Of a stretch of DNA of 49,195 bases, positions 2,974 through 21,246 are shown one piece after another. A program made the position numbers and the translations under genes. Position 1 is the stretch's first letter. Each line of letters opens with the position of its first letter. The stretch is from an uncultured Candidatus Saccharibacteria bacterium. Its GTDB lineage: Bacteria; Patescibacteriota; Minisyncoccia; Phycocordibacterales; JAACPR01. The stretch covers positions 1 through 49,195 of the forward strand of contig CAZPRI010000002.1 in the NCBI GenBank assembly GCA_964589635.1. Direction: 5' to 3'. The notes below the pieces were generated by a model. That model ran no database searches, was not told where the DNA came from, and saw only the letters and a list, made by a program, of their open reading frames with translations.

Positions 2974-2981
2974 AGAATAAT

Positions 2982-5339: not shown

Positions 5340-6194
5340 ATGAATACAATAAGAAAAATATCTACCAAATGGTGGAGAGAGGAGGCAAATAAACCTGTCA
5401 CCGTGTTGATTCTACTATTCCAGCTTTTGTCTTTTGGCGTTCTGTTCCCTTCACTTTTTAGTTGGAGCGGAGTTTTTATCGCAATTGGTCTATATTGGAT
5501 TAGTGGAGGTCTTGGGATAACACTCTGTTATCACAGATTGTTAACTCACAAGTCCTTTGAAACCCCAAAATGGGTTCGCTACGTACTGACTACTTTTGCC
5601 TGTCTTACCTGGCAAGGTCCACCAAAAACATGGGTTGGAACTCACAGGTATCACCACAAACACTCAGATGATGATCTTGACCCGCATAGCCCCAAACATG
5701 GCTTTACATGGTCTCACATCACCTGGGTCCTAACGAAATCTCCTGACGGATTTGATGCATCTCAATTCGCTAAGGATTTAGACAAAGAACCCTTCATGAG
5801 ATTCTTGGATACATTTTGGTGGCTTCCTCAGATACTTCTTATGATTATCTTGGGAATAGTTGGATGGATAACACAAGACATTCTACTTGGATTATCTTGG
5901 ATGGTTTGGGGTGGTCCATTTAGGACAACTCTCGTCTATCATTTCACATGGTTTGTGAACTCTGCAGCTCACACATGGGGCTACAGAAATTTTCAGACAT
6001 CTGATAACTCGAGAAATCTTTGGTGGGTAGCTCTTCTCTCTTGGGGAGAAGGTCATCACAATAATCACCATGGAGAACCGAGCTCCGCAGCTCATGGAAT
6101 GAAATGGTTCGAGCTTGATCCTACGTATTGGACAATCAATATTATGAGTTGGTTTGGACTTGCGTCGAACATTAAACGGCCAAAAAAATTATAA
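5340..6194 (+). CDS. Membrane fatty-acid desaturase (delta-9 / acyl-CoA desaturase family)
   Basis: Three His boxes HRLLTH, HRYHH, HNNHH; GITLCY, WFVNSAAH, DPTYW. Confidence 0.93.
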   Translation: MNTIRKISTKWWREEANKPVTVLILLFQLLSFGVLFPSLFSWSGVFIAIGLYWISGGLGITLCYHRLLTHKSFETPKWVRYVLTTFACLTWQGPPKTWVGTHRYHHKHSDDDLDPHSPKHGFTWSHITWVLTKSPDGFDASQFAKDLDKEPFMRFLDTFWWLPQILLMIILGIVGWITQDILLGLSWMVWGGPFRTTLVYHFTWFVNSAAHTWGYRNFQTSDNSRNLWWVALLSWGEGHHNNHHGEPSSAAHGMKWFELDPTYWTINIMSWFGLASNIKRPKKL

Positions 6195-6228
6195 AAAAGC
6201 CGCGCCCTTCGGGCGCGGCTTTCTTTTT
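6193..6228. terminator. Bidirectional intrinsic terminator
   Basis: AGCCGCGCCC-TTC-GGGCGCGGCT between convergent genes. Confidence 0.85.
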
Positions 6229-6346
6229 ATTTCTTCTTCTTTGCTGCCTTTTTAGCAAGCATTTCCTTTTTAATTTCTAATCTTTTTTTTGTTTTTTTTG
6301 ATCGAGAAGTTCTATCCTTCCCAACTCCTGTTGCTCTTTTTGCCAT
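6227..6346 (-). CDS. 39-aa Lys/Arg-rich protein, not in the ORF track
   Basis: MAKRATGVGKDRTSRSKKTKKRLEIKKEMLAKKAAKKKK; TATAAT 7 nt before ATG; stop abuts a terminator. Confidence 0.7.
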   Translation of the reverse strand: MAKRATGVGKDRTSRSKKTKKRLEIKKEMLAKKAAKKKK

Positions 6347-6440
6347 GAGCTCCATTATACACGAATCGCTATTGATTTAAAGTGTTTTTTTGATATGATT
6401 TTGAAACACTATTATTTCTGCATAGAAAATTAGTGAATAT

Positions 6441-6512
6441 TCCGTGGTAGCTCAATGGTAGAGCAAACGACTGTTAATCGTTAGGTTACAGGTTCGAATC
6501 CTGTCCGCGGAG
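6441..6512 (+). tRNA. tRNA-Asn (GTT); CCA not encoded in the integrated state
   Basis: Acceptor TCCGTGG/CCGCGGA, D arm GCTC-AATGGTA-GAGC, anticodon arm AACGA-CTGTTAA-TCGTT, T arm ACAGG-TTCGAAT-CCTGT. Confidence 0.97.
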
Positions 6513-8171
6513 CATTATAGGTTGAGAGGACACGAAAGTGTCCTTTTGCCTTTTTACAGAGCCGTATTTTTGAGTTCGAGAATTGATTTTTCGACCTTTT
6601 GCACCTTTAACGTTTTCTGTTACGAATGAATGCACTTCACCCTTTAATACAGGGTTATTTTCAACATCTTCGTTCAGTTCGAGACTTTCATTAACTTTCG
6701 GCATCCACTCCTCCAAAAACGAGAATGTTAACGTGTATTTCGGTTCTACTAACCCTTTTAAGATATTTGCACTCGAAAGTGCGTACGACAAAAATAGTCT
6801 CTTTTGCTCACGTGTAGCATTCTTACTCCTGTATATTTTTTCAGCATTAGTTGCAAGTTCGTGAATGGCAAATCCAACTTCGTAGTAGGCATTATTATTC
6901 GTTTCAAGCTCATTTAGGGCTTGCTGAATGTCCTCTCGCTGACACTTGAAGCTGGTATGTTTCTCATCGTATAACTCAGGACTTATTCTGCCGTCGAGAC
7001 GGTCTTCGTACATCGTATCCATTCTCTGCTTTATTCTAGTGAGCTGGTTCTCTAAGCTTGTTTTCTGTGCCTCATAACAGGCAATTTCTTCGCTATGGCT
7101 CTCTTTTAGAGCTTTCTCTAGTACTTTGAGTACTTTCTCACCCTTAGGGGCAACAGAGACGATTTTAGAGAGCAATGCGTCCTCCAATTTGTCCTGCCAA
7201 ATATACTTCTTAACTTCATCAAGCTGTGCTTTGCACTGTTTGCAACCTCCGTAAATCCTACCTTTTTGCTTCTCGAAGTTAACGGTACTATTGCACTTTC
7301 CACATTTAATCTTTCCTTGCAAAACTTTCATATGTTTCGTCTGATAAGGACTAGTGGTGTTCCGTGTTATTTTCTCTTGTACCTGCTCAAAAACTTTTTT
7401 AGTTATAAGAGGTTTATGTTTTCCTTTATACAAGACACCTTTCCAAACGAGCTCTCCGTAGTAGAAAGGGTCTTTAAGTAGCTCGTGTATTCTACTTTTA
7501 ACAATCTTGTTGCCGTTGGCATTTCTCAAACCGAGCTCGTGCATCTTGTCGGCAAGTGCTTTCGTAGAGTAGTTACCTGTAGCATAAAGCTTGAACATCT
7601 TAACCACCATAGGAGCTACGTCCTCATTAACGATATGGATTTTGTGTCCCTTCTCGCCAATAGTTTTGTATCCAACAGGTGGTTTAGTGGGTAACCAGCC
7701 CTGTGAAATCTTTTCTTTTTGTCCCTTTCTGACTTCCTCAGAAAGATTATTGATATAAAAGTGAGCTACCGCCACCTTCATATCCCATACAAAGTTTTCG
7801 TGGGCTCGTGTCTCTTCATTCACCACAAAGGACTCTTTGACGAAGTGTATTTCTCGCTCTTTGGACTCTTTAACCCACTCGCTCATAATGCCTGCGTCTT
7901 TTGGGTTACGGGTAAGACGGTCAATTTTTTCACACAGTATCACACTGATACCTTCCGTATTTACAAATCGAAGCATCTCGTTAAATGTCTTACGGATTAT
8001 TTTTCCACTTGCTGACTCACTGTTGCGAAAAATACGCACCACCTCATATCCTTCTTTAATAGCGTACTCTTCAAGTAACTTAATCTGGGCTTCGAGTGAA
8101 TAACCCGTCTCTTCTTGTTCTCGAGATGATACTCGAGCGTAAATAACTGCTTTTATCTTTGTAGTTTTCAT
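6486..8171 (-). CDS. Large serine recombinase (integrase)
   Basis: YARVSS catalytic motif, SESAS, KIDRLTRN, PPVGY, zinc ribbon (CGKC...CKQC), coiled coil; last codons are antisense to the tRNA. Confidence 0.95.
   Translation of the reverse strand: MKTTKIKAVIYARVSSREQEETGYSLEAQIKLLEEYAIKEGYEVVRIFRNSESASGKIIRKTFNEMLRFVNTEGISVILCEKIDRLTRNPKDAGIMSEWVKESKEREIHFVKESFVVNEETRAHENFVWDMKVAVAHFYINNLSEEVRKGQKEKISQGWLPTKPPVGYKTIGEKGHKIHIVNEDVAPMVVKMFKLYATGNYSTKALADKMHELGLRNANGNKIVKSRIHELLKDPFYYGELVWKGVLYKGKHKPLITKKVFEQVQEKITRNTTSPYQTKHMKVLQGKIKCGKCNSTVNFEKQKGRIYGGCKQCKAQLDEVKKYIWQDKLEDALLSKIVSVAPKGEKVLKVLEKALKESHSEEIACYEAQKTSLENQLTRIKQRMDTMYEDRLDGRISPELYDEKHTSFKCQREDIQQALNELETNNNAYYEVGFAIHELATNAEKIYRSKNATREQKRLFLSYALSSANILKGLVEPKYTLTFSFLEEWMPKVNESLELNEDVENNPVLKGEVHSFVTENVKGAKGRKINSRTQKYGSVKRQKDTFVSSQPIMLRGQDSNL
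6527..6547 (+). terminator. Element-supplied terminator behind the tRNA
   Basis: AGGACAC-GAAA-GTGTCCT followed by TTT, 14 nt after the tRNA. Confidence 0.6.
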
Positions 8172-8198
8172 AGTGTTTTCTTAGTTATATTTTAACAA

Positions 8199-8480
8199 TT
8201 AGCGCTTAGAACGCATAGTTTTTTGAGATAGTTTTTTAGCTTTCCGCCAACCACTTTTCCCAAAGTAAGCACGACATATTTTGTCGAGAAATCGAGAGAG
8301 CGTTAACTCTTCTACGCGTGCCTCTCTACAAATAAGAGCGTGCCATTCTTTCCGAATACGGATTTGTACTGTGCTTCTTTGTTGCCTAAATCGTAGATGT
8401 GAATGACATAGTTCTTCCTTTGCTTTTTTCTGCGACATTTTGTCGACACTTTTCTGCCAAACGACTTTTTTATCCCTCAT
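8199..8480 (-). CDS. Putative ribbon-helix-helix DNA-binding protein
   Basis: STVQIRI strand followed by KEWHALICREA and TLSRFLDKI helices; directly upstream of the recombinase; start uncertain. Confidence 0.55.
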   Translation of the reverse strand: MRDKKVVWQKSVDKMSQKKAKEELCHSHLRFRQQRSTVQIRIRKEWHALICREARVEELTLSRFLDKICRAYFGKSGWRKAKKLSQKTMRSKR

Positions 8481-8574
8481 ATCTTCTGGGAGTTAGCTTG
8501 TAATGTTATGTACCAGATACTCATTGGGTCGACTCAACCTTTACATCCCTCGTGGGAGACGACACAACTCAGTT

Positions 8575-8658
8575 CTTATTGATGTTCAGATGAGGTCGCC
8601 CGTTGACAAGTCGGCAGTCAGAGCGGGCGCTAACATCTGAACACCAACAAGTGTTCAG
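8575..8658 (-). ncRNA. Long structured RNA hairpin upstream of the RHH-recombinase genes
   Basis: 18-bp stem with two G-U pairs on the minus strand, 4x4 internal loop, CGCCCG/CGGGCG, TGAC/GTCA; competing hairpin at 8637-8658. Confidence 0.55.
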
Positions 8659-8677
8659 TCAGTTTTTTAAGGAGGAC

Positions 8678-8851
8678 TCACTGATTACCTCCTGTATCCA
8701 GTTTTTCTTGATGCCTGATTTGTGCTAAAACGTCGAAATAACCGACTAGGTCGGATAGCATAGTGCGAGCTTCTTCTTCAGTTAGAGTTTGGTTGTATTC
8801 TTCTCTGACTGCATTTTGAAACTCTTTGATTGTTTCAACACTTATCTGCAT
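8678..8851 (-). CDS. 57-aa hypothetical protein, not in the ORF track
   Basis: MQISVETIKEFQNAVREEYNQTLTEEEARTMLSDLVGYFDVLAQIRHQEKLDTGGNQ; amphipathic helical pattern. Confidence 0.7.
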   Translation of the reverse strand: MQISVETIKEFQNAVREEYNQTLTEEEARTMLSDLVGYFDVLAQIRHQEKLDTGGNQ

Positions 8852-8865
8852 CTCTTACAGAATAG

Positions 8866-8896
8866 AAAAACCACCAATTGTTTAGCGAATTGGTGG
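8866..8896 (-). terminator. Terminator-like hairpin
   Basis: CCACCAATT-N8-AATTGGTGG followed by TTTTT on the minus strand. Confidence 0.65.
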
Positions 8897-8981
8897 GACA
8901 CGGTGGGTTTGAAGTTTTATTTAGCGTGTATTTAGAAAGCTATATGAGAAGTATATTCAAAGTTAAACTTTTATTTCCCAC

Positions 8982-9620
8982 TTAGCGGTCTTTTATTTTT
9001 AACGCAACAGTATCGCCTGAACGCCACTCAAGTGAAAGTGTTTTGGTAGATTTTCCCTTAGTAAGTTCACGCTGTATTTCTTTGACTGTGTTTCTGAGAA
9101 CTGTTTTTTTGTCCGCAATATCTACAAAATCATCATCGGGTAAAGCTATAGCTTCAATTACAGAGTTTATTGATTTAGACACTCCAATTACTGGCTCAGT
9201 AAGAAACCTGATTAAGCGTGATTTTCGTGAATACTCATCATCAGATAAAAAGTGTTCTTTCTTATCTCCATTAAAAAGTAGAAAAATGTTTTTCTTTTTC
9301 TTAATAATCTCTAAAGCTTTCTTTGACAGACCCAACTCTTGATTGATTGCTTCTACTAAATGATTGGCGTTTACCTTATTTAGTCCACCATCTTCAAAAA
9401 TACACCACTCTGAGTGCATTTTTTCAGATATGGCGTCCATTTGTTTTTGTGGCACAAGCGATGTTTTTGTAACTTGTGCAATTGCATACAAATCAGATTG
9501 ACCAAGTTCTACTTTTTCATCTGGGTAAGTTAACGCATAACCAACCGACCTGATGTGCTCGAGTGTTTCTTTAGAATAACCTGCAAGCATCTTTTTATAT
9601 TTTTCTATACTAATACTCAT
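8982..9620 (-). CDS. Hypothetical protein, possible C-terminal winged helix
   Basis: 212 aa ORF co-directional with res; LRNTVKEIQREL resembles a recognition helix (weak). Confidence 0.6.
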   Translation of the reverse strand: MSISIEKYKKMLAGYSKETLEHIRSVGYALTYPDEKVELGQSDLYAIAQVTKTSLVPQKQMDAISEKMHSEWCIFEDGGLNKVNANHLVEAINQELGLSKKALEIIKKKKNIFLLFNGDKKEHFLSDDEYSRKSRLIRFLTEPVIGVSKSINSVIEAIALPDDDFVDIADKKTVLRNTVKEIQRELTKGKSTKTLSLEWRSGDTVALKIKDR

Positions 9621-9653
9621 TTTGTTTCCGTAAGCTCATTCTTCAGAAGTTCC

Positions 9654-12344
9654 TCAAGGAGCAACTTTGAAGTTGTCAGCCAAATCCTTGAATGTTTTTG
9701 GCTGATACTTGTCCCAGTCTTCCTGCTTCACATAGAGGGCAGTGTAAGTCTTTCCAGGCACGCGTTCTGTTGCGTCATTGCACCATTGTTGAAGTCGTTT
9801 TATCTTCTCTATATCATCTAAGTCTTCACGACCCTTGGTCTCAATTATGTAAATAGTGGCATTGTCTGTCTTCACGAAGAAGTCGGGATAGTAGTTAGCT
9901 ATAGACCCAGTAGCGGTCTTATACTCGATTTTGAAATGGATTTCGAGGTAGTTTTTAGCAAAGGATACAATCTCATCATCAAGAGACTCTAGCCAGTCTG
10001 CAAACTCAAGTTCAAACTCACTATCGCCAACAATCTTATTGAACACCGATTTTTTAGGGATAAGGTACTTGTTTTGATTTACAACAAACGGGCGAGCTTC
10101 ACTAACTTTGAGATAGTTCTGTACCTCAGTATCGCCGATATCTTGGACGGTCAACTCGTTAATTGCTTTCTTGAAAGTCTCTATAATCGTCTTCTTTGGT
10201 TCAAGCTCAGACAGGTTACGAAGTATATTGGTATCGTTTAAGTCTATTTCAGCTCCAAATAGTTTTGACTGTACAAAGTTTTTTACTTTCTCAAAAAGAA
10301 TTGCATCACTGGAACGAACTAGTCGTAAATCTTTTCTTACAACCTGAACAAAATACGACAGGACATTTTGATATGAGATTGAATGTACTGAGTCAAAAAT
10401 AATCTTGTGATGTTCGCCGTTTTCAATGACGTCCTCAAACACAATCTCTTTTTGTTCCTCCTCAGAAAACTCCTTTGGTGCAACAGGACTGAACTTAAAC
10501 TTATCAATATCCAAATCATTCAGATTTTTGAACTCACGCTGAATACGTGGGGTGAGTATTGGTAACTCAATATCTAAAGCTTCAATATCCTTCTTCACAT
10601 TCTCGTGGTCAACCTCAATAACCTCAGGACCTTTGAGTGGGCTTTTATTACCCATAGAACGAGTATCGAGTGTAACACCCTCCGCTCGAATAGACTCAAC
10701 AAAATCCATAAAGGCAGGTGTACCGACAACACTCACGTATTCTTCAACATCCTGACCAAAAAACATTTTTCTAAGACCTCGTCCAAGTGTTTGTTCGGGC
10801 AAGACTTGTGATTTTGCTGTATACGGACGTAGACCAACGATAGTCGTAACATTCTTTACGTCCCAACCTTCCTTAAGCATCAAGACGGACACAATGGCTT
10901 TGAATGGGCTTTCCATACTGTCTATCTCATTTGATTGTCGTCGAAGTTCTTGCAATTCTTTTTCTTTTTTACCTGTTGCATTTTCGGCAATTTCACCACT
11001 CCTGTTGGTGTGAATAGTCAGTACCGCATCTCTCAAATCTGGGTAAGTTGCCTCAAGATAAGTAGCAACATCATCACAGTTAGTCGTATCATCAACCATC
11101 ACAAAGAGTAGGGATTTCTTTCCTGTTGAAAGATATTCTTCGTACGCCTTTTTCCACTCGATATAACCGAGGTCAATATAATCTTTGTACCGCTCCACAA
11201 AGTTAGAACTTTCATTCTCACTGAGTTGTGCTCGACTGCGTGAGTCTGGTAACACTGGCATTTTTACAACCTCTTGATAGATGGCTTCTACAAGTGGATA
11301 GTCTGAGACTACTTGAGGAAAGATGTAGCCCTTTGCATCTTTAGGCGTAGCAGTAACGTCAATCTGTAACGGTAGACCGCCACCTTTCAGTACGAGTTGA
11401 TTATGAATATCCTCGATTGACTTAAACCAAGCCATCTTTGGGTCGTGGATATGATGAGCTTCGTCGTTAATAATAATAAGTTCATCAATTTCTCGCACTA
11501 TCTCACCAAGGTCTGTTTGGTTAGCATTAGTTTTTGCTACAGCTTTTTCTCCAAGAAAATAGTTAGTTGTATTTTCGTCCTCAAAAGAAGCTTCATCGAT
11601 ATCACCTGCATAGACTCGGTGAATGTTGGTTAAAAAGATGTTACCTGTATCTGAAATATGACCGACATCATCTTGAAAGTGAATGTTGATTTGAAAATCC
11701 TCGTTCCAGTTTTGCCCTTCGTACCCATCATCAGGAAGCATAGGGTCATCATAAAAAATCTTCTGACCATCAAAATCAACCTTGATACGCTCAAATACAA
11801 TGACGTTTGGGGCTATTAGCAAGAAGTTACGGGCAAGTTCTGAGTCTTTTTCGTACATCTTGTGAAAATATGCCCATACGATGATAAGCGACATCACCTT
11901 AGTCTTTCCACTACCAGTAGCCATCTTAACAACCATACGCAACCAGTCCTCGGGAAACATTTGAGCACTCAGGCGACCCATTTTATCGAAACGCATCAGG
12001 TCGTGCTTACTTCGTGCTCGGGCAACATCATAGAGCCAAATCACTGTTTCTACTGCCTCTCTTTGTGCAAAGTAGTACTGAAACGGAAAAGACGTTCCAT
12101 CTGCATTTAGTTTTACGTGAGGTTCAGTAAACCACCACTTCAAAAGTGCTTTGGAGGTCTCTGATGCTCCTTCATAACCACTTTCACGCCACTCTTGTAC
12201 TTCTTCTCGCACTTGAGCCACAAGAGGAGGTAAAAGACGTTCGTAACCACCTTTTTCACGCAAATCCTCTTCAGCAGGAAACCACCTGGTGTTGGCAGGT
12301 GCGGTTGCGAACTTATCTTTTGGAAAATCTTTGTGTAAAGCCAT
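9654..12344 (-). CDS. res: Type III restriction enzyme Res subunit (SF2 helicase plus PD-(D/E)xK nuclease)
   Basis: MATGSGKT, NDEAHH, TATP, LKEGWD, QTLGRGLR, YPDF...IETKG. Confidence 0.92.
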   Translation of the reverse strand: MALHKDFPKDKFATAPANTRWFPAEEDLREKGGYERLLPPLVAQVREEVQEWRESGYEGASETSKALLKWWFTEPHVKLNADGTSFPFQYYFAQREAVETVIWLYDVARARSKHDLMRFDKMGRLSAQMFPEDWLRMVVKMATGSGKTKVMSLIIVWAYFHKMYEKDSELARNFLLIAPNVIVFERIKVDFDGQKIFYDDPMLPDDGYEGQNWNEDFQINIHFQDDVGHISDTGNIFLTNIHRVYAGDIDEASFEDENTTNYFLGEKAVAKTNANQTDLGEIVREIDELIIINDEAHHIHDPKMAWFKSIEDIHNQLVLKGGGLPLQIDVTATPKDAKGYIFPQVVSDYPLVEAIYQEVVKMPVLPDSRSRAQLSENESSNFVERYKDYIDLGYIEWKKAYEEYLSTGKKSLLFVMVDDTTNCDDVATYLEATYPDLRDAVLTIHTNRSGEIAENATGKKEKELQELRRQSNEIDSMESPFKAIVSVLMLKEGWDVKNVTTIVGLRPYTAKSQVLPEQTLGRGLRKMFFGQDVEEYVSVVGTPAFMDFVESIRAEGVTLDTRSMGNKSPLKGPEVIEVDHENVKKDIEALDIELPILTPRIQREFKNLNDLDIDKFKFSPVAPKEFSEEEQKEIVFEDVIENGEHHKIIFDSVHSISYQNVLSYFVQVVRKDLRLVRSSDAILFEKVKNFVQSKLFGAEIDLNDTNILRNLSELEPKKTIIETFKKAINELTVQDIGDTEVQNYLKVSEARPFVVNQNKYLIPKKSVFNKIVGDSEFELEFADWLESLDDEIVSFAKNYLEIHFKIEYKTATGSIANYYPDFFVKTDNATIYIIETKGREDLDDIEKIKRLQQWCNDATERVPGKTYTALYVKQEDWDKYQPKTFKDLADNFKVAP

Positions 12345-12345
12345 A

Positions 12346-14526
12346 CTAGATGTTTATTTCAATTACCTTGGTCGTATCGTTACCAAAAATATCAATCACC
12401 TTAACTGCTATTTTTCGCTTTTCTCCTTTAATAACAGGGACTACGGCTGAAGTGAGGTCTAGTGAACGGTCTTTTTTCGTTCTGAATGACTGCCATTCGT
12501 TCTCAAAAATATAGTTACCAGTCCATTTCTCTATTTCTTCTCCATCTTCTTCAACTCGAACAATCTCTTTTTTACTTTGGAAATCAAAGTCAACTGACCA
12601 ATAATCAATCCAATCAGTCCACTCTTTTGTAAGTACCTCTCGATTGATAACTTCAGAGTCTTTTTCTTTCGTGAGCTTAATAACCTGACCAGCATCAAGT
12701 ACTACTTTTGAACTGCCAGGTCTTAACTTATCTCCAACTGCATCAAGGTCGTCTTGATTATAGAAAACAGCAAAGTCAGTAAGCTCAACTTTCAATTCCT
12801 TCTCATTTCCTCTGCCTGATACGTGAGGTTTGAAATCTACATACGCAAGGTCATAGAACTTAACGTGTCCACGCTCAATAGCACGCCTATCGAACACCTC
12901 ACCTGGAATGATTTTTAGATTGATGTCGATACCTCGACACGTATCCTCACTTATCAGTACGTCCTTATCAATACCCATACCGAACTCAAAACCAAGAATA
13001 TCTATTTTTGTTAACTCTTTCTCACGTGCTTCGTGGCAAGTATCGAGAATAAACTGCATTGATACGGGGTCTGTAAGAGGTCCTACTGCAACAACACGGT
13101 CTCTTTTTTTACCTACAAAATGTTCAAATGAGTCGAGTCCTTCTGCTTTATACGCTTGCAAAATAAGATTTACAAAATCCTTTTCCTTTTGAGCTTCAAG
13201 TTTTTGACGCTCTTCTTTTTTCAGGTCTCCGTCCACTTTTACAAATGCATCTCTTTCATATTTACCAAGGTTAAGTATTTCAAAAGCCCGAAAGTCTTTT
13301 CCTTCTTTTTTAAGCTCACGTTGAACGTTAATCATTCGCTTTCGGGTTGTGTGTACACCAAAACGACCGATGTCTGAACAAATCCATTTTCGACCAAGTT
13401 TTTCTGCAACAGCAACAGTTGTCCCAGAACCTACAAAAAAGTCGCCAACTAAATCACCCTCGTTACTTGCTGCGGTAATAATCCTCTCCAATAACTTAGG
13501 AGGTTTTTGTGTTGGATACTCCAAACTCGAAAGTCTGTTGATGTCAGTCCATACCGTCTCAACAACTTTCCCAGACTTCGCATCGAGATATTGTTTAAGT
13601 GATTTTCGCCCGTCTGAACCAACTTCAATCAAACCTTTCTCCTCAAAATCACTTATGCTTTTTTCAGAATAATCACGAAGCTCTTGTAATCTATATTTAC
13701 CTTTCTCGTCTTCATACTTGTATTGTTTTAATGTCGACTCTTTGTAACCCTCCTTTGGCAGATTAAAAGTTCTTTGTTCAGATTTTGAGTAATAGTAAAT
13801 AGTATCGTGGTTCTTGGGGAATTGACCTAATTTATTGGAAGGTCCAAAAAAACTACCTTTCCTCCATATGATTTCATTTTGAAAACTGTCTTTACCGAAC
13901 ACCTCATCGAGTAATAACTTGATGTAAGCACTTACTCTCCAGTCGCAGTGAACAAAAATACTCCCATCATCAGCCAATAATCCGTGCATTAAACTTAATC
14001 TTTCACGTAGCATTGAAATAAAACTATCTGACCCCTGACCCCAAGTATCTCGATATGCAACCTCTTCAAGTACGGACGGCTGTTTAGTAAGTTCTTCGTC
14101 TCCAATTTCAATTTTTGTTGAAAAATCTGCCCCCACATCAAATGGAGGGTCGATGTAGATAAGCTTGAGTCCACCTTGCTCGTCAATTTCTTTTCTTAAA
14201 GGACCGTTTTTTAGTGAAGACAGAATGAGTTTGTTGTCTCCCCAAATAAGCTTATTTGTCCAACCCTTAACCTGCCGACCTGATGTATCAAAAAGCGACT
14301 CTTGTGCTTCTTTTTTTACTTCAATACGAGGTTCGTCAATGTGCTCAATGGATTGAAAAGGCAAAACTGAGTTCTCAACTTCACCAGTCTTTCCATTCCA
14401 AACTAGTTCTACTTCACGTTCATCACCAAAAAGTATAAAACGGTACTTATCAGGAAGCGGTTTTCCAGCTTCGATAAGTTTTATAGCGTCTCTTTTTTCA
14501 TTATCTGTTAACTCAATTTTTTTCAT
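12346..14526 (-). CDS. mod: Type III R-M Mod subunit (beta-class amino-methyltransferase)
   Basis: GDNK, YIDPPF before DFFVGSGTT, YPTQKP; ATG 14526 (MKKIEL) preferred. Confidence 0.92.
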   Translation of the reverse strand: MKKIELTDNEKRDAIKLIEAGKPLPDKYRFILFGDEREVELVWNGKTGEVENSVLPFQSIEHIDEPRIEVKKEAQESLFDTSGRQVKGWTNKLIWGDNKLILSSLKNGPLRKEIDEQGGLKLIYIDPPFDVGADFSTKIEIGDEELTKQPSVLEEVAYRDTWGQGSDSFISMLRERLSLMHGLLADDGSIFVHCDWRVSAYIKLLLDEVFGKDSFQNEIIWRKGSFFGPSNKLGQFPKNHDTIYYYSKSEQRTFNLPKEGYKESTLKQYKYEDEKGKYRLQELRDYSEKSISDFEEKGLIEVGSDGRKSLKQYLDAKSGKVVETVWTDINRLSSLEYPTQKPPKLLERIITAASNEGDLVGDFFVGSGTTVAVAEKLGRKWICSDIGRFGVHTTRKRMINVQRELKKEGKDFRAFEILNLGKYERDAFVKVDGDLKKEERQKLEAQKEKDFVNLILQAYKAEGLDSFEHFVGKKRDRVVAVGPLTDPVSMQFILDTCHEAREKELTKIDILGFEFGMGIDKDVLISEDTCRGIDINLKIIPGEVFDRRAIERGHVKFYDLAYVDFKPHVSGRGNEKELKVELTDFAVFYNQDDLDAVGDKLRPGSSKVVLDAGQVIKLTKEKDSEVINREVLTKEWTDWIDYWSVDFDFQSKKEIVRVEEDGEEIEKWTGNYIFENEWQSFRTKKDRSLDLTSAVVPVIKGEKRKIAVKVIDIFGNDTTKVIEINI

Positions 14527-14701
14527 ATTTTGATTTTTCAAGAAAAGACTGATATTCAGCTTTTTCTATTCTGAACTCCTTACCAATTTTATACGCCTTA
14601 AGTTTCCCGACTTTAATGTAGCGGTAAATGGTCATAATGTTTACGTCCAATTTTTCAGCCACGTCTTGAGCCGTATAAAACTCTCTCTCGGAGTCATTCA
14701 T
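14513..14701 (-). CDS. Excisionase-like (MerR-type) HTH protein
   Basis: YTAQDVAEKLDVNIMTIYRYIKVGKLKAYKIGKEFRI; overlaps the mod start. Confidence 0.88.
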   Translation of the reverse strand: MNDSEREFYTAQDVAEKLDVNIMTIYRYIKVGKLKAYKIGKEFRIEKAEYQSFLEKSKYEKN

Positions 14702-14744
14702 TACTATATAATACTGAACTTTTCTTTACATAGCAATTTTTTTC

Positions 14745-17177
14745 GTGAATAATAGAAAAATGAAGCAATTACTCCAAGAGATAAAAGAATGGGAGCATAG
14801 CTGGTGGCAGTACTTAAAGTACAGCTACAAACTTACGCTTTGGCTATACATAGCCAGACTCAGAAGAGCTCGTTCTTTTTGGAAACGACACTTTGATATT
14901 TTCCTGAGAGCAAGTTTTATTTTGTTTGCACTAGGAGTGGGACTTGTCCTTCATCTGATTGGTGGTAGTGCATTTACTCAAGATATTTTAAGCAATTATC
15001 TAATTGCTGTAGGGGCTATGGCTGGTGGTGCTATAGCAATCGTATTCACAATATCTATTTTTTTACTTCAAAGTGCCGCCGATTTGTATTCATCTCAGTA
15101 CTTCGAAGTCTATATTCACGACTGGAAAGAGAAAATCGTCTATGTATTGGTTATACTTATAACCTTAGTTTTCTTTGGCACTGGTTTATATGTCGGCGGA
15201 CTAGAAGTAATACCCGAGACCGTAAGTTCCTATATTGTTTGGGTTTCTTTGGTCTTGATAGGAACTATTTTTGCCCTAATAGATTGGCAATATAAAACTG
15301 TTCGACAAAAAATCAGTCCGACAAAAGCAATTAGTTTTTTGGAAGCACAAGGTATAAAGTTTTTAGAGAAAGTACACGAAGACGCACAACGAGTTGCTGA
15401 TATTATGACCACGAGAGACGGAAGTTTAACTGAAAATGAAGCCCTAGCAAGAACATACAATTATTTTTTCCAACCACGTATCACTGACCTCAATAGACAG
15501 CTTGAGAACTTAGTAGAAATATCACTCAAACTTTCCGATAAACAAGAAGTGGGGACGACAAAAAGAGGTCTCACTGCTGTTTATAACGTGCTAGCAAAAT
15601 ACCTAGAGGTGAGAAAGACATCTTCTGTGGCTATGCCGTCAGGTATTGCTTTAATGGCTGTTGAAAGCGATAGTCAACGATTTCTTTTCGACAATTTAGA
15701 CCGCCTCAATAAAGCGGGAGAGAAGTTTATCAAAGAGGATAAGGACGTGCAGGCAACTTATATTCTCAGTATTTACCAGTCGTTAGCAGAAAAAGCAAAA
15801 GATGTAACTTATGTAGGCAGAACGAGAGATAATCCAATACTTGAAAATATAGTGGGTAGTCTCGAGTCATACATTGCAATAGGAATGAGAGCAAAAAATC
15901 TCGAAGTAGTTTTCCAAGGTGCAGAAAAACTTGGAAATGTTGCTGTTCCTGTTGCAGAAGTTGGTCTAAATCACACTCTACAAGGTATACAGAACAAGCT
16001 AAAAGAGATTGCTGTGTATGGAGTTATTGAAAAGCAAAGCATCATTGTAGACCAATGCAATTCCAACATCATAAAGATTTTAGGTCTGGCTTTTACGAGT
16101 GATAAAATAATTGCACAACATCAATTCTCCTCTGGCTTAAAGCATATAGCGAGCATAGCTCAACACGTGTTTATTGCTAGGCAGACTGGCTATATGTCCA
16201 ATGACTTTAGCTCATCATTTGCTATGACAAAGGGGTATGACAACCTGCATCAATTACTGTTTGGCATACTTCAGTACTATCAACAAATCACAGACGAGAG
16301 AGAAAAAGACACTTATCGAGGAAACATTACAGAGTTTTTTGACGAGTTATATCGCAGTCTACGAACGCTCTCTGAAAATCTCAAACATTGCGATAATCTA
16401 CTTACAGAAAGTATCGGGCGACTATTATTTAATGTGAATGATATTATTATTCAACTTATTGAAGACGATGAGTTTACTGATGAGCAAGATGAACTTCGTA
16501 AACAACTGGGTTGGAACGTGCACTTACCATATTGGTTTGTCCATCACTCTGATAAGTTTGATGCTGGGTCAAATAACTTCAGGTCTCTAACAGAAAGTGT
16601 TGCTAAGACAGGTATTCTGGCTTCTGAAAGATTAGACGATAAAGAACTAGCTGAAGACGCTGTGAGTTGTCTTGGTTCTATAACTCAAGAAGCTCTCGAA
16701 AAGAATACTGACAAGTACGGTTATGATGAACCACGAATACTTGAGAAGGCGTGCTACATAGGAATACTTGCCCTAAAGAAAGGTTGGCTTGAGGTGTATG
16801 CTGAAACAGTTATAAAAATCTTAGATTTTCAACCAAAGTATGAGACAAAATACTTCAGCAACATACCTCCTCACATTGATATAGAAAAAATCAGTCCGAA
16901 GAAAAACCAGTTATACGTTGAGATAATGAGATGGCGAGACAAGTTTGATTATAACCGCTTAAACAGAATGAATGGATTACGAGATGATGCTGAGTCAATA
17001 ATGTACGAACTAATAGATATCAGCGACATTGATTGGTTTACATTCAAAGTTTGGGGTAAATGGGACGCCAACAGCCCTATCAACGATAAGATTGAAGAAG
17101 AGATTGAGAAGATGAATAAGAAGCGAGCTTTAGCAAAATTGGCGACGTGTATTAGTGAAATAGTGAAGAAAAAATGA
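14745..17177 (+). CDS. Large hypothetical membrane protein (about 4 N-terminal TM helices, long helical C-terminus; DUF2254-like layout)
   Basis: 810 aa ORF; hydrophobic segments at roughly aa 55-180; true start may be ATG 14760. Confidence 0.7.
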   Translation: MNNRKMKQLLQEIKEWEHSWWQYLKYSYKLTLWLYIARLRRARSFWKRHFDIFLRASFILFALGVGLVLHLIGGSAFTQDILSNYLIAVGAMAGGAIAIVFTISIFLLQSAADLYSSQYFEVYIHDWKEKIVYVLVILITLVFFGTGLYVGGLEVIPETVSSYIVWVSLVLIGTIFALIDWQYKTVRQKISPTKAISFLEAQGIKFLEKVHEDAQRVADIMTTRDGSLTENEALARTYNYFFQPRITDLNRQLENLVEISLKLSDKQEVGTTKRGLTAVYNVLAKYLEVRKTSSVAMPSGIALMAVESDSQRFLFDNLDRLNKAGEKFIKEDKDVQATYILSIYQSLAEKAKDVTYVGRTRDNPILENIVGSLESYIAIGMRAKNLEVVFQGAEKLGNVAVPVAEVGLNHTLQGIQNKLKEIAVYGVIEKQSIIVDQCNSNIIKILGLAFTSDKIIAQHQFSSGLKHIASIAQHVFIARQTGYMSNDFSSSFAMTKGYDNLHQLLFGILQYYQQITDEREKDTYRGNITEFFDELYRSLRTLSENLKHCDNLLTESIGRLLFNVNDIIIQLIEDDEFTDEQDELRKQLGWNVHLPYWFVHHSDKFDAGSNNFRSLTESVAKTGILASERLDDKELAEDAVSCLGSITQEALEKNTDKYGYDEPRILEKACYIGILALKKGWLEVYAETVIKILDFQPKYETKYFSNIPPHIDIEKISPKKNQLYVEIMRWRDKFDYNRLNRMNGLRDDAESIMYELIDISDIDWFTFKVWGKWDANSPINDKIEEEIEKMNKKRALAKLATCISEIVKKK

Positions 17178-17194
17178 ATGTAATGTAATTGTAG

Positions 17195-18088
17195 TTATGT
17201 AACATTGAAGCCCTCAAAACAGGCAAAAACGTCCTCCATTTTTTCTCTCACATCTATCTCATCATCATAAACAATCAACATCTCCAAACTCTTGTGTCGA
17301 CTAAACTTTCGCACGTCTCGAACCTCTAAACTCTGTAGTAGTTTTGTAACATAAAAATGTCTAAAGCCGTGAACAGTCTTCTGTACTCCAACGTCCTCAA
17401 ACATTTTCTGAAACTCACGTTTAATCGTCATTGTGCTTAGTCTGTTACTTTTTCTGTTACCAAGACTCTTGAAGATTGCACCGCTACCAACTTTGTTGAG
17501 TTTTAGATGTTTTCTCAAAGCTTCTACTGTAGCAGGAGCTAGATACACTGGCTCTTTATCATCAGCACCCTTGGCACGAACAAATATCGTCTTGTTAGGT
17601 AAATCAACATCATTCACATCAAGACGAACAATCTCAATCTGTCTCAGCCCTTGAAACGCCAATAAACAAAACAACGCACGTAATCGTGCGTGTTGTGGTG
17701 TGTCTGGGAGTTGATTTAATTGCTCCACGACCTTTTTCATATCTCTGTCTGTCAGTCCCTCTCGCTTATGCTTCTTATTTTGTTTGAACAGCCGTATGTT
17801 TTGAGTAATGTCTACTGGAATGAGTCCGAGACGATTGGTTTCTTTAAGAAAGATTTTTGCTGTTGCAAGATACTTGTTTTTAGTAGAGATGGTGTAGTCT
17901 GTTCTTTTCTCAAGATGTCGTTTGTATTCTAAATAACTATTTACACGGAAGCCCTCTTTATGAATGAAGTCTATAAACATTCCAATACGTGCTGAGTAGT
18001 CTTTACGAGTCGACTCACTTACATCAAGAGAGTCAAAGATTTTCCTCGCTTGAAAGTGCAGGTCTCTTATTTCGATTAAGTGGTTCAT
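17195..18088 (-). CDS. Tyrosine recombinase/integrase
   Basis: GLRQIE, AKG, HGFRH, RHKS, and Tyr in LIVYD: complete R-K-H-R-H-Y set. Confidence 0.92.
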   Translation of the reverse strand: MNHLIEIRDLHFQARKIFDSLDVSESTRKDYSARIGMFIDFIHKEGFRVNSYLEYKRHLEKRTDYTISTKNKYLATAKIFLKETNRLGLIPVDITQNIRLFKQNKKHKREGLTDRDMKKVVEQLNQLPDTPQHARLRALFCLLAFQGLRQIEIVRLDVNDVDLPNKTIFVRAKGADDKEPVYLAPATVEALRKHLKLNKVGSGAIFKSLGNRKSNRLSTMTIKREFQKMFEDVGVQKTVHGFRHFYVTKLLQSLEVRDVRKFSRHKSLEMLIVYDDEIDVREKMEDVFACFEGFNVT

Positions 18089-18468
18089 AAGCCGATATGT
18101 ATTATCTCAACACCACGCTTTTCAAAAGAGGGTGTGAGCATTTCGTATCGATGGCACTGCTTATAATCTTTTTCCGAACACATCACGCAGACATTTTTCC
18201 CAGTGCGAACAAGCTCAACAAGCTCGTCTATGGTTTCTTCATAGTTTTCATTTTCTCCGAGACCGCCGAGATTATCACCTCTGAATTGATATTCGATACC
18301 CTCAATCGAGAGCATCTCATCTAACTTCTTTCTATTGAATTGAGGACAAAATCGAGACCGAGGATAGGTACGAATGTCGACAATAATGTCTATTTCGTTA
18401 TTCTTTAAGATTTTTAAGTACTCTGAATACGCTCGGTTGCTATGACCGATGGAAAATACGGTTTTCAT
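18085..18468 (-). CDS. DUF488 family protein
   Basis: SIGHSNR, VDIRTYPRSR, LGG, MCSEKDYKQCHR. Confidence 0.88.
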   Translation of the reverse strand: MKTVFSIGHSNRAYSEYLKILKNNEIDIIVDIRTYPRSRFCPQFNRKKLDEMLSIEGIEYQFRGDNLGGLGENENYEETIDELVELVRTGKNVCVMCSEKDYKQCHRYEMLTPSFEKRGVEIIHIGL

Positions 18469-18570
18469 ATTATTTTTTAACTATTTAACCCAGTATGGGT
18501 GATTGGTAATATCTATATTATATCAAAAATACGGCTCTAAATATAGGTATTTTAGACACTACTCAATAAG

Positions 18571-19434
18571 TTAATTGCAAAATCCTGGCAAAGTTTCTTC
18601 ATAAGTGCCTTTTGAAGCCACACTTGCACCAACTTCAGCTTCTTCACTATAACCCCACGCCCAGATAGTTACATCGTCCCAATCAATCAGATAATCTCGT
18701 GCTAATAGGTAGAGAGTGTGGTCTACATCTCTCCGCTCTGCATTATCAGGTACAACAATTCGTACACCTATTCTTTTACAACCAGCATAAGAAATATCAT
18801 CTTCTTCAATTATTCTGTAATCGACTTCCACTGGCTCAGGTTCAGATATTTCAGGTAGTTCTAAAACCAAAGTTTCATTAGTATCAGCTTTTTCAATCTC
18901 AATAGCGTATGGAGTAAAGTTTTGGGGTACTTCATATACTAAATATCCTCTCTCTTCTATGTTATGACCCAAGTCTCTACCATCAATAGCTTCAGCTTCA
19001 ACGCCGATACTTCCTCCTCGAGTACTTTCATATACATCGTACGATACGCCCTCGGTATCTATTAAGTTCATACCACTAGAGTAAAGTGTGAGGGTCTTAC
19101 CTGACGTGTTTGTAAAAGTGGTGTCGATTAAAACAAATATGGTGTTGGCTTTTGCTTCGGTCTCACCGAATGAACCTGATAAAGTGTTGTGGTATTCAAA
19201 ATCATTTACTTTTACATCAAGTGTTGCTAGCTGACCAATTTGACCAAAAGGGACGATAACAAGGTCTCGACCATTTTGTTTAGTCAAATCTGCGTTTTCT
19301 TTAGTTGTAGCTTGAACTGGTTCGTTTGTGGTGTTGTTATTTTGAAAAAAGAATAGAAGTCCCATTACAGCAATTCCCACAGCAACTAAAATAATAACTA
19401 ACTTCCTCTTATTGTGTGTTGGTTCGGATTTCAT
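18571..19434 (-). CDS. Membrane-anchored DUF4352-like (Ig-fold) protein
   Basis: N-terminal TM helix; FVLIDTTFTN, LIDTEGVSY, GYLVYEVP pattern. Confidence 0.7.
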   Translation of the reverse strand: MKSEPTHNKRKLVIILVAVGIAVMGLLFFFQNNNTTNEPVQATTKENADLTKQNGRDLVIVPFGQIGQLATLDVKVNDFEYHNTLSGSFGETEAKANTIFVLIDTTFTNTSGKTLTLYSSGMNLIDTEGVSYDVYESTRGGSIGVEAEAIDGRDLGHNIEERGYLVYEVPQNFTPYAIEIEKADTNETLVLELPEISEPEPVEVDYRIIEEDDISYAGCKRIGVRIVVPDNAERRDVDHTLYLLARDYLIDWDDVTIWAWGYSEEAEVGASVASKGTYEETLPGFCN

Positions 19435-19477
19435 TTTTTAGCATTAAAACTTGTAATGCCTAGTGGCACACAAAAAG

Positions 19478-19556
19478 CCCACCACCAGGAGAGCACCTTA
19501 CGGTAACTCCGACCACCGTTTCCAGTGGACACCGAACCAACGACCCTGATGATGGG
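19478..19556 (-). ncRNA. C4/CI-like antisense RNA candidate
   Basis: 12-bp closing stem CCCAUCAUCAGG/CCUGGUGGUGGG, hairpins CCACUG-GAAA-CGGUGG and ACC-GUAA-GGU, unpaired GUUGGUUCGG complementary to two flanking sites. Confidence 0.65.
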
Positions 19557-19640
19557 TTCTTTATGTTGGTTCGGATTTTTGACCATATCCTTAGTAATCC
19601 AAGGGGTTAGGTCATTCAAACTTTATTCAGTTGTGTTTAT

Positions 19641-19664
19641 ATTATATCAAGAAACGGCTATAAT
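19641..19664. promoter_or_regulatory. Divergent -10 boxes
   Basis: TGaTATAAT on minus (19641-19649) and TATAAT on plus (19659-19664). Confidence 0.6.
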
Positions 19665-19671
19665 GCACTGT

Positions 19672-20253
19672 ATGTTAAGTATTAAACATAATCCAAAACT
19701 TTTTTACAGAATTGACCTAAAGTCTATATCCAACCTTGACCAAGAGACAAAAGAGGTTATCCAGCACATCAATTCATCGTGGTCAGATATTGAGTACTCA
19801 AACTATCTTTTTCATAAAAACTTCGGTCAGCTGTCAGACGCTAACGAGAAAGAGATTGGTATGTTTTTTACTTCCTTATTGATATTTAGCAACAGCTTCT
19901 ATACTCATCTCAGCACAGTGTACCTGTTGATGAAAAAACTCAATAGTAAATACCCAAAAAGTACAAAGAGATTACTCATAATGAACAAAAAGTTTTTTGA
20001 AAGAATACAGACAATCAGAAACTGCATTCTCATACACAAAGAAAAGGATAGCTTTTACAAAAATCCTAAAAACTCTATGAGTAGTACTGACCCCAAACAC
20101 TTGATTGAGCAGAAAATGTACGTAATTGAGAATGGGTCGAAAAAAATCTACACACTAAAGCCATTAAAAGACGTGGATATGATGTTCAGACTCGTTCAAA
20201 ACTTTGAACATCTGTTACAGTCTGAAAACTCAAAACTCGAAAAGTCTGCGTAA
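19672..20253 (+). CDS. Putative HEPN-domain protein
   Basis: Helical protein with R-N-x4-H motif (RNCILIH); start set at MLSIKH, 7 nt after TATAAT. Confidence 0.55.
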   Translation: MLSIKHNPKLFYRIDLKSISNLDQETKEVIQHINSSWSDIEYSNYLFHKNFGQLSDANEKEIGMFFTSLLIFSNSFYTHLSTVYLLMKKLNSKYPKSTKRLLIMNKKFFERIQTIRNCILIHKEKDSFYKNPKNSMSSTDPKHLIEQKMYVIENGSKKIYTLKPLKDVDMMFRLVQNFEHLLQSENSKLEKSA

Positions 20254-20697
20254 CTACTTAAATCCTTTTTTACTAAGTAAGAGTCCAATCTCTTCTTTAA
20301 GTTGTTTATTTTCTTCTTCTAGGCGGTCAATCATATCTCTCAGCACCCAGTTAGTAGAAAACTCATTAGGGCGTTTTCTTTCCATAAACCACATAGCCAA
20401 CTTATAGTTTCCTCTAGCTAGTTCGTTTGCTATTGCTTTTCGGGCATTAAAAATTGTAACTGTCTTAAAAAGCTCAAATCGCTCTCGAAATACAGGGTGT
20501 GAGTCTAAAAAACGGTAATACGCCGCCGTCGAAATAAGGGCTAAACTACAAGCTTCTTTTACTGTACAACCTATGGCAAATGCATACTCCAATTTCGAGA
20601 GTACGGCATCTGGATTTTTACCATTAAAAAGTGGTCGACCAACTGTTTGATTGACCTTGAAGTTCTGTATTACTGGTTTATGTAAAAGTGTTTCCAT
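20254..20697 (-). CDS. Phage small terminase-like / HTH DNA-binding protein
   Basis: GRP motif, HTH (GCTVKEACSLALISTAAYYRF), AMWFMERK. Confidence 0.55.
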   Translation of the reverse strand: METLLHKPVIQNFKVNQTVGRPLFNGKNPDAVLSKLEYAFAIGCTVKEACSLALISTAAYYRFLDSHPVFRERFELFKTVTIFNARKAIANELARGNYKLAMWFMERKRPNEFSTNWVLRDMIDRLEEENKQLKEEIGLLLSKKGFK

Positions 20698-20870
20698 ATT
20701 GAAAAACTACGCCTCTACTAAGCTGAGTAGTTGTTTAATGTCCTGCATCGTACCTTCAGGGTCAGGAATGGCTTTTCTCCAGTCATAAGTTCTAAATGCG
20801 TCCCTCCACTGGAGCCACTGTAAAGCAAAGTAAAGTGTTATTTTATATTTATTAATGATAAAATGTTTAT

Positions 20871-20990
20871 ATGTCACAAGTATTCAAAAATATTTTAGTT
20901 ACAATTTCATTTCTATTGCTACTATTAGCATCTTGGAGGTATTGTTCGTTCAAAAAATCTAAAATTTCTCAACTTCTCTTTTTATTTTAA
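20871..20990 (+). CDS. Possible 39-aa hydrophobic peptide, not in the ORF track
   Basis: MSQVFKNILVTISFLLLLASWRYCSFKKSKISQLLFLF; TGaTAAAAT 6 nt before ATG. Confidence 0.4.
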   Translation: MSQVFKNILVTISFLLLLLASWRYCSFKKSKISQLLFLF

Positions 20991-21006
20991 TCCAATTAAG
21001 AGTTCT

Positions 21007-21037
21007 CCTCCTTCGTACAAGACTACGGAAGGACAGG
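21007..21037. repeat. Short palindromic repeat related to the 1081-1100 unit
   Basis: CCTTCG...CTACGG arms match the reverse complement of GCCGTAGCTTTAGCGAAGGC. Confidence 0.5.
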
Positions 21038-21246
21038 TGCACTTGTCCAGTAGGGGGAGTAAGAATGAACATGTGGACATTGTGAACTTTATAAAACACC
21101 TACTCCCCTCTCAATATAAGTTCGAACCCGTTGCAGTTGGCGGAGCCATTGTAAAGCAAAGTGTTACTTAATTCAATAAAAACTAGAGTATAGCACCAAG
21201 CCTAGATATCAAGTTTATTTTCTGAGACATTTGATATAGTTAACCT

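Follow-up and report, generated by a model that had tools for sequence, protein, structure and literature searches.

Several mobile elements are known in which the attachment site of the element (attP) lies within a reading frame, and integration alters the encoded product. In Myxococcus phage Mx8 (intP/intX), attP is part of the integrase coding sequence; on integration the gene acquires a different 3' end, while its product stays active with altered specificity (PMC6070905). The "suicidal" integrases of the archaeal SSV type have the att site in the integrase gene, forming a compact module (PMC8371274). In the integration-dependent immunity of mycobacteriophages of the BPs/Brujita type, attP is located in a coding frame from which a C-terminal segment is removed upon integration, with a change in behaviour (PMC3694055). 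The locus compared with these systems is a 14.3-kb island (positions 6514–20811) in a 49,195-nt stretch of DNA (contig CAZPRI010000002.1 of assembly GCA_964589635.1; "the window" in the following) from an uncultured Candidatus Saccharibacteria bacterium, a member of the Patescibacteria. The window is contig C2 of a host genome of 590 kb that is 93% complete, and the island is seated in the 3' end of a tRNA-Asn gene. The original prediction, made from the window alone, was that integration had split the gene of the island's own recombinase between the two ends of the element.

The recombinase gene and its detached tail

In the integrated state the recombinase gene is a minus-strand open reading frame (ORF) of 561 codons, the product of which ends ..PIML-RGQDSNL. 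As predicted, the residues RGQDSNL and the stop codon are the antisense of the acceptor and T arms of the tRNA-Asn gene, which was called by ARAGORN. The protein matches the Pfam families Resolvase (PF00239; E = 6.2e-25, residues 8–158) and Recombinase (PF07508; E = 9.8e-17, residues 183–271). The match to the zinc-ribbon family PF13408 (Zn_ribbon_recom) is weak, with 22.8 bits as compared to a cut-off of 25.3 bits, yet C290 and C293 are invariant in a 30-sequence alignment, as are S15 and S16 of the resolvase-type catalytic domain. Based on this combination of domains, the product of the split gene is a large serine recombinase; the gene carries serine-recombinase domains only, and no catalytic domain of tyrosine recombinases. 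For P0102, an uninterrupted homologue, the AlphaFold model (mean predicted local distance difference test (pLDDT) score of 87), which shows long helices at residues 360–392 and 398–448, in line with a coiled coil inserted in the zinc-ribbon domain, matched full-length integrases of the SPbeta type, phiC31 and Bxb1 in the PDB with E values of 1.6e-17 to 7.7e-13, the best match extending over 545 columns; these closest solved structures are only distant relatives of the enzyme.

At the right end of the island, positions 20707–20811 read on the minus strand QWRDAFRTYDWRKAIPDPEGTMQDIKQLLSLVEA, followed by a stop codon. This frame encodes 34 residues, QWRDAFRTYDW...LLSLVEA, and the sequence GGAGC is present at both junctions (6509–6513 and 20812–20816). 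Joining the two cores would restore, as had been proposed, a product of 588 residues, i.e., by addition, the body of 554 residues up to ..ML and the tail of 34. A profile of the tail, built from six database proteins and excluding the window, gave one significant match among 1902 stop-to-stop frames, namely 20707–20811 (E = 1e-15), with the runner-up at E = 1.3. BLASTP comparison with the C-termini of uninterrupted homologues indicated 58% identity over 31 amino acids to P0102 (E = 8e-11) and 61% identity to P0088, and in the alignment the tail follows directly on ..ML of the uninterrupted homologues, exactly where the window protein (P0001) departs from them. The stretch is thereby confirmed, far beyond chance, as the conserved C-terminal tail which the integrated recombinase gene lacks. 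It is this unique match which establishes that the split-gene observation is correct; the 5-base core alone would have been insufficient. Since the recombinase gene spans attP, the integrated form and the circular (or tandem) forms encode different C-termini, in agreement with the original prediction. All recognised domains, comprised in 554 of the 588 residues, stay in one ORF after integration.

It might be argued that the right boundary of the island lies elsewhere and that the tail is open and in frame by chance, as the shared core comprises just 4–5 bases and no empty site was recovered. We regard this as highly improbable in view of the single profile match, the occurrence of the same architecture at 14 of 14 family junctions, the G+C content, which steps from 37–41% in the island to 30–36% in the flanks precisely at the boundary, and contigs from three sequencing runs that match the right flank from 20811 on, with other letters before. 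The boundary thus stands where it was originally placed.

Occurrence of the split gene in related elements

A contig scan with one genome per species revealed 284 stretches encoding a relative of the recombinase, the best 80 of which, representing 79 loci, were kept; the homologues carry labels such as Paceibacterota, Nomurabacteria, Kaiserbacteria and the like. Among these loci and the window, 35 recombinase ORFs end in an antisense tRNA called by ARAGORN, 22 in tRNA-Asn and 13 in tRNA-Gln, the latter being targeted in a sister clade. Many other loci are situated at contig ends, or have similar peptide ends without a called tRNA. There were 33 tail matches with E < 1e-3, all on the recombinase strand. 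Where both junctions are within the examined DNA (14 of the 35), the detached tail is located 6–14 kb upstream of the tRNA junction on the same strand. All 14 tail junctions have the core GCTC, as do 32 of the 35 junctions between recombinase and tRNA. The terminator hairpins on the host side of the tail junctions are diverse and unrelated to each other, and in many cases the antisense of CCA or CA stands before them. Conservation of the (F/V)RT tail at the right ends of related elements, suggested earlier as a check, was thus observed.

The C-termini of the 120 best homologues are of three kinds, ending either with a stop 1–2 residues past ..LL, with a tRNA-antisense peptide (e.g. ..RRQDSNLRPID), or with the tail; a minority read uninterrupted into W(R/Q)DAFRT(Y/F)DW..(F)P.PE.......LLALV. 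Integrated C-termini comprise 2–21 tRNA-antisense residues, and at 17 of 32 junctions the core-encoded Leu is followed by just two. Uninterrupted genes occur in tandem arrays (L078, and the upstream copies in L022, L035 and L058), in which the body of the tRNA-distal element is rejoined to the tail of its neighbour, and as single copies in loci L021, L062 and L071. Judged from these genome sequences, the split is a family trait of tRNA-targeting mobile islands in Patescibacteria.

Searching 1.84 billion representative proteins with the tail profile resulted in 271 matches (E ≤ 1e-3). Of the best 150, 149 are proteins of less than 300 amino acids with the tail at the C-terminus, and 11 have the recombinase body upstream. 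The matches indicate that detached tails are common and annotated as orphan mini-genes, and they explain hundreds of orphan mini-proteins predicted by gene callers. Two loci possess two tails in tandem at the far end of the island (L014, 50–148 and 645–740; L043, 554–655 and 1192–1260), which suggests successive integrations with loss of the body of the older element.

Viral contigs contained 33 relatives of the recombinase, only three of which are close (L105, L106 and L107; 41–48% identity). L105 and L106 are situated at contig ends and have tRNA-antisense C-termini, and L107 is broken off in the recombinase body at a contig end. Neither a tRNA nor a tail was called in these three loci, which therefore lend no support to packaged circles. 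Two IMG/VR contigs of 19 and 44 kb (L108 and L109) code for more distant serine recombinases with 31–33% identity, which likewise end in peptides of the tRNA-antisense type (..DLDSNQD and ..QRDSNPRPNDS), so the split arrangement may reach beyond the family described here. The host genome itself harbors a second serine recombinase (G000:C22:8700–9623, L002), 30% identical over residues 4–311 and contained in an open frame of 527 aa.

Attachment sites and terminator overlay

Of 32 tRNA arms, 31 had their best match to the T-loop motif TTCGAAC at offset 11 from the core; in the tail arms, the best match was at offset 16 (14 of 14). The comparison covered one arm of each site. In the window, likewise, the T-loop-like motif of the tail is 5 bp farther from the core than the motif of the tRNA arm. 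In the LI integrase system, the half-site motif bound by the zinc-ribbon domain is positioned 5 bp nearer the centre in attB, the host attachment site, than in attP (PMC3783163). The equivalent 5-bp shift observed here provides independent support for the assignment of attP, attB and crossover. The crossover predicted from the junctions falls within the 4-base core GCTC, corresponding to tRNA positions 71–74. Serine integrases cleave with a 2-bp stagger at a central dinucleotide and integrate unidirectionally; the arm symmetry of attP points to GC or CT within GCTC as the putative central dinucleotide, with no choice between the two. As the host flank following the right core begins with CA, the empty site would read ..GGAGCCA, that is, it would encode the CCA end of the tRNA, which is removed by integration. 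A gene of the CCA-adding-enzyme family is present elsewhere in the host genome.

A terminator-like site with an 11-pair stem was called at 6523–6548. Its hairpin is dual-coded with the recombinase codons ..KDTFVSS.. on the minus strand. Throughout the family, the last body codons (..K-D/E-S/T-F-V-P/S-S..) hold a stem-loop preceded by an A-run, which on the tRNA strand is a hairpin followed by a T-run, 10–14 nt past the tRNA. Across 28 family members, 90.1% of the cells of a 9-pair helix are paired, as compared to 67.6% in shuffles (0 of 500 as high). Both partners have changed in seven of the nine pairs, and the hairpin attains a covariation score of 0.739 versus 0.301, with slid controls at 0.12–0.30. 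It thus appears that the element carries a substitute terminator for its target tRNA gene, whose own terminator was displaced by integration. Coding is dense, with one stretch serving as protein, attP arm and antisense tRNA terminator, and such dual coding together with a replacement terminator would explain the harmless seat of the island in a tRNA gene of which no second copy was matched in the host's own genome.

In three sequencing runs (X1, X2 and X7), contigs were observed which match the tRNA (6442–6521) and continue with a differing hairpin and T-run, and there are further contigs in which a match to the right flank, from 20811 on, is preceded by 17 differing letters. We infer that both kinds come from strains that occur together in the samples and have related elements in this tRNA gene.

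Peptide and DNA signals in the tail

The position of the stop codon is identical in 31 of 33 tails, and 27 detached tails retain an open frame. The invariant Leu at tail position 28 is encoded by five different codons, and Thr at position 8 by four; diversity at the three codon positions of the distal tail is 0.57/0.42/0.68, with the highest value at the third. The median ratio of nonsynonymous to synonymous substitution rates (dN/dS) of the tail is 0.47. In the AlphaFold model of P0102, the tail forms three helices (pLDDT 78–86) behind a disordered linker (pLDDT < 50), and this linker, which precedes the junction, varies in length among homologues. The first ~9 tail codons are biased towards CGA (26 of 30 Arg codons), TTT (21 of 24 Phe codons) and GAC (19 of 21 Asp codons), since TTCGAAC, the T-loop motif of the tRNA targeted, is spelled out by the F-R-T codons. 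Taken together, these features show that the tail is under protein-level selection and is peptide and DNA signal both. The expectation of a conserved tail therefore held; however, part of this conservation, that of the FRT codons, reflects a constraint on the DNA of the attP arm rather than on the peptide.

The latter point bears on another explanation, namely that attP overlaps the gene end simply as both a terminator and an attP arm have to be accommodated beside the tRNA. The tail peptide would then have a constant function or no function at all, and the change of isoform would be a by-product of compaction devoid of regulatory meaning. Both attP arms are indeed dual-coded with DNA-level signals (terminator hairpin and T-loop-like motif, respectively), the integrated C-termini are arbitrary, and the length of the pre-junction linker is variable. 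We nevertheless consider this explanation doubtful, as the distal tail, which is 40–100 nt from the core and hence outside a 50-bp attP, shows unrestricted synonymous change at invariant residues, ends at a stop codon of constant position, and is confidently predicted to be helical.

Functional interpretation

In the interpretation which we consider probable, the split gene with its att sites is the integration module of a family of tRNA-targeting Patescibacteria islands, whose serine recombinase has attP inside the 3' end of its own gene, the full-length enzyme acting in integration and the tail-less enzyme in excision. By sequence, the circle, and the inner copy of a tandem array, encodes the full-length enzyme with its conserved helical tail of ~34 amino acids. 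Integration into tRNA-Asn (tRNA-Gln in the sister clade) fuses the body to 2–21 antisense codons and leaves the tail stranded 6–14 kb away, and the last body codons supply the hairpin and T-run that appear to replace the displaced host terminator. The full-length enzyme, formed from the circle or from tandem arrays only, would catalyze attP x attB integration; the tail-less enzyme encoded by the integrated copy would be available for excision, probably together with the ribbon-helix-helix-like protein encoded upstream. The tail, as a selected peptide, may affect how active or how stable the episomal form is. On the circle, the 147-aa small-terminase-like gene would become the direct downstream neighbour of the full-length recombinase gene.

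A number of observations weigh against this interpretation. Production and activity of either isoform are predicted from the genes alone. The dN/dS value of the tail is rough, because dS is saturated (median 1.6), and the codon bias of the first ~9 tail codons means that conservation there is DNA-level, not peptide-level. The terminator alignment comprises 28 of the 32 anchored junctions; excluded were L017, which is mis-anchored, and L057, L069 and L078, in which no hairpin was seen by eye. A small-terminase-like gene following the tail was rejected as a family rule, since among the cases examined it is found only in the window, in L022 and, weakly, in L069, and unrelated genes occupy this place in other elements. 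Complex prediction for tail and body resulted in a score of 0.48, as compared to 0.00 for the best of three controls, with at least 74% of contacts agreeing between runs and a partner pLDDT of at least 70. In the calibration of this score, 58 of 80 solved complexes passed, as did 2 of 110 mismatched pairs, and the band of ≤0.60 contained only seven of the 80 in addition to both mismatches that passed; by this calibration, docking of the tail on the recombinase body is weakly supported. Sequencing runs matching the element are labelled as aquifer and hot-spring metagenomes (24 runs, none of them of RNA and all available as assembled contigs). In four of them (X1, X2, X7 and X12), compared with window positions 5500–21500, neither the joint expected for the circle (20816>6514) nor that of the empty site (6513>20817) was found, a result that is uninformative either way, since assembled contigs drop rare forms. 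An unoccupied syntenic site was not found among 40 relatives searched with each flank, the relatives being too diverged.

Record 15 of run X12 spans the right junction (20528–20910), and contigs of run X1 end at 6524 and 20820. An exact search of metagenome contigs with a stretch of the tail end gave no matches. The joints 6406>16044, 7108>7225, 10461>21061 and 13302>14038 (with sides of 22–32 letters), as well as 14532>6224, were taken as spurious or foreign.

Two loci in two other genera, L098 (G002:C24, 884–2990) and L099 (G009:C6, 1803–4190), consist of tRNA-Asn, about 2 kb of DNA without a recombinase gene, a degenerate tail remnant, and a flank with the same sequence as window positions 20822–20840. 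They look like decayed elements at the same site. Such remnants would be expected if integration acted as a lock, in a milder form of the archaeal "suicidal" integrases, that is, if the tail were needed for any catalysis or synapsis and the tail-less enzyme of the integrated copy were inactive, leaving the island fixed unless a second element or tandem copy restored the gene. The tandem arrays, with their inner recombinase rejoined to the tail of a neighbour, and the preponderance of detached pieces (139 of the 150 best tail-bearing representatives) are in line with such a lock. On the other hand, only 34 of 588 residues, located behind a disordered linker, are lost, and no recognised domain is affected. 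Moreover, the detached tails have kept their frame and stop, which argues that integrated copies return to the circle often enough for selection. Inactivity of the integrated enzyme thus seems quite unlikely.

A more far-reaching version of the favoured interpretation, in which the two isoforms divide integration and excision between them, would regard the detachable tail as a built-in directionality switch, or as a degron of the episomal enzyme, with integration rewriting the gene into one for an excision-competent tail-less enzyme. The tail would fold back on the zinc-ribbon/coiled-coil region and keep the enzyme off attL x attR, the sites flanking the integrated element, whereas the tail-less enzyme would excise with at most a small ribbon-helix-helix helper. 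We deem this rather unlikely, and a role of the tail end ..LLALV as a degron is conjecture. If true, the recombination product itself would encode the change of direction, as a first example among serine recombinases, spread across Patescibacteria and possibly further.

Accessory genes and cargo of the island

The features of the island are compiled in Table 1. The proposal that the two isoforms might set directionality "without a separate RDF" (recombination directionality factor) is unsupported. The 93-aa gene directly upstream of the recombinase gene, which holds the same position in 13 of 79 related loci, codes for a candidate accessory factor. Its product shows a strand-helix-helix conservation pattern, and ribbon-helix-helix leads from Atlas were below Atlas's own bar; the protein may take part in excision.

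Table 1. Features of the island and its insertion site in the window
Feature	Position	Strand	Remarks
tRNA-Asn(gtt)	6441–6513	+	Integration target (attB left arm, B), intact when integrated; ARAGORN
T-loop motif TTCGAAC	6492–6498		tRNA arm, starts 11 nt from core; candidate zinc-ribbon-domain motif of attB
Left core GAGC	6510–6513		GCTC on recombinase strand; tRNA positions 71–74; GGAGC of the original prediction is 6509–6513
Intrinsic-terminator-like hairpin and T-run	6523–6557	+	10 nt past tRNA end, inside attP P' arm
Large serine recombinase, integrated isoform, 561 aa	6486–8171	-	Residues 1–554 body, last 7 tRNA antisense
93-aa ribbon-helix-helix-like gene	8199–8480	-	Directly upstream of recombinase; candidate regulator/directionality factor
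Island cargo	8982–20253		orf212, type III restriction and methylase, 810-aa protein, tyrosine recombinase, DUF488, DUF4352, others
Type III restriction (cargo)	9654–12344		
Methylase (cargo)	12346–14541		
810-aa unknown protein (cargo)	14745–17177	+	
Tyrosine recombinase (cargo)	17195–18088	-	Separate from the split serine recombinase gene
DUF488 (cargo)	18085–18468	-	
DUF4352 (cargo)	18571–19434		
147-aa small-terminase-like gene	20254–20697	-	Starts 10 nt past stop of the tail
Detached recombinase C-terminal tail, 34 codons and stop	20704–20811	-	attP P arm and distal peptide
T-loop-like motif TTAGAAC	20790–20796		TTCGAAC in most relatives; within tail FRT codons, 16 nt from core
Right core GGAGC	20812–20816		Family core GAGC is 20813–20816; host flank then CA..
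Host flank, attB right arm and beyond	20817–20873	+	Also beside degenerate tail remnants in two other genera

The 147-aa protein matched PHROG 4102 (small terminase) with E = 9.4e-14; no other phage-type matches were obtained among the six island proteins scanned. The 810-aa cargo protein lacks Pfam, PHROG and PADLOC matches and is shared with the family elements L009 and L078 (phmmer E values of 0 and 3e-289). The genes of the tyrosine recombinase and the DUF488 protein (17195–18468) travel as a pair; both are present in L011, and the recombinase gene also in L004. The DUF488 protein matches the PADLOC candidate PDC-M45B (E = 2.8e-29). The cargo right after the tail in other elements comprises a reverse-transcriptase gene and a gene for an ABC-3C-type SMEK/CTD12 protein (L054, 2767–4353; L038, 3400–4374), consistent with defence cargo in the family.

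Outside the island, a 37-nt motif of the right flank (20931–20967) has a copy with 97% identity in the same genome (C24:7052–7088) and occurs with 84–94% identity in six related genomes (G006, G018, G011, G007, G023 and G021). A sequence of ~40–50 nt at 6183–6235, just downstream of a desaturase gene, is also found at 2976–3014, with further copies in relatives and, within the genome, on contigs C3, C8 and C10; with self-matches in both orientations, it looks like a dispersed palindromic repeat or a shared terminator.

Comparison with known systems

Serine integrases are major tools of genome engineering, and structural work is actively addressing why they act in one direction and how separate factors reverse them. 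The family described here provides a simple pair of isoforms (588 and 561 amino acids) with defined attP, attB, attL and attR. To our knowledge, there are almost no genetic tools for Patescibacteria; an integrase native to them, with its tRNA target conserved, could become one. The architecture of the system is well supported, and the mechanism outlined above is putative.

As a small, tRNA-adjoining island with defence cargo, here with a small-terminase-like gene, the element resembles tycheposons and elements similar to phage-inducible chromosomal islands (PICI). Large serine recombinases are found in 27 of 937 tycheposons (bioRxiv 10.1101/2020.12.28.424599). A split recombinase gene is not mentioned in the passages of that report covered here, and the hosts are cyanobacteria, whereas those of the window element are Patescibacteria. 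PICI-like satellites have small-terminase or capsid-redirecting genes of their own and depend on a helper phage; the element has one small-terminase-like gene and no known helper phage or packaging signal.

Characterised large serine integrases target mostly protein-coding genes; the window element, in contrast, targets the 3' end of a tRNA gene. The characterised enzymes (LI/A118, SPbeta, phiC31, Bxb1 and TP901-1) share domain order and fold with the window enzyme, and the att sites are equally short, with the motif 5 bp nearer the centre in attB than in attP (PMC3783163). Location of attP inside the integrase gene is not described for them within the literature searched. More generally, no published description of a serine recombinase with attP inside its own gene was found in a literature search of limited coverage.

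The original prediction referred to phages with attP in an integrase or repressor gene. This precedent is real, but the cases (Mx8, SSV-type integrases and integration-dependent immunity) concern tyrosine recombinases and repressors. In the integration-dependent immunity of mycobacteriophages, the integrase is a tyrosine recombinase, the gene affected is that of the repressor, and the segment removed is a degradation tag (PMC3694055), whereas in the window it is the recombinase gene that is split. With the SSV-type integrases, the window enzyme has in common the att site inside the integrase gene; however, these are tyrosine recombinases described in a review as exclusive to archaea, the genes of which are fragmented on integration (PMC8371274), whereas the window gene, in a bacterium, keeps 554 of 588 codons in one frame. 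The likeness to Mx8 consists in the position of attP within the integrase reading frame and the new 3' end acquired on integration. Again, Mx8 Int is a tyrosine recombinase, as opposed to the large serine recombinase of the window, in which the swap removes a short conserved tail behind a linker; moreover, a tRNA terminator and a T-loop-like motif of attP are overlaid on the end of the window gene. The principle of an attP site in the integrase gene is thus known for tyrosine integrases, and its realization in a serine recombinase appears to be new.

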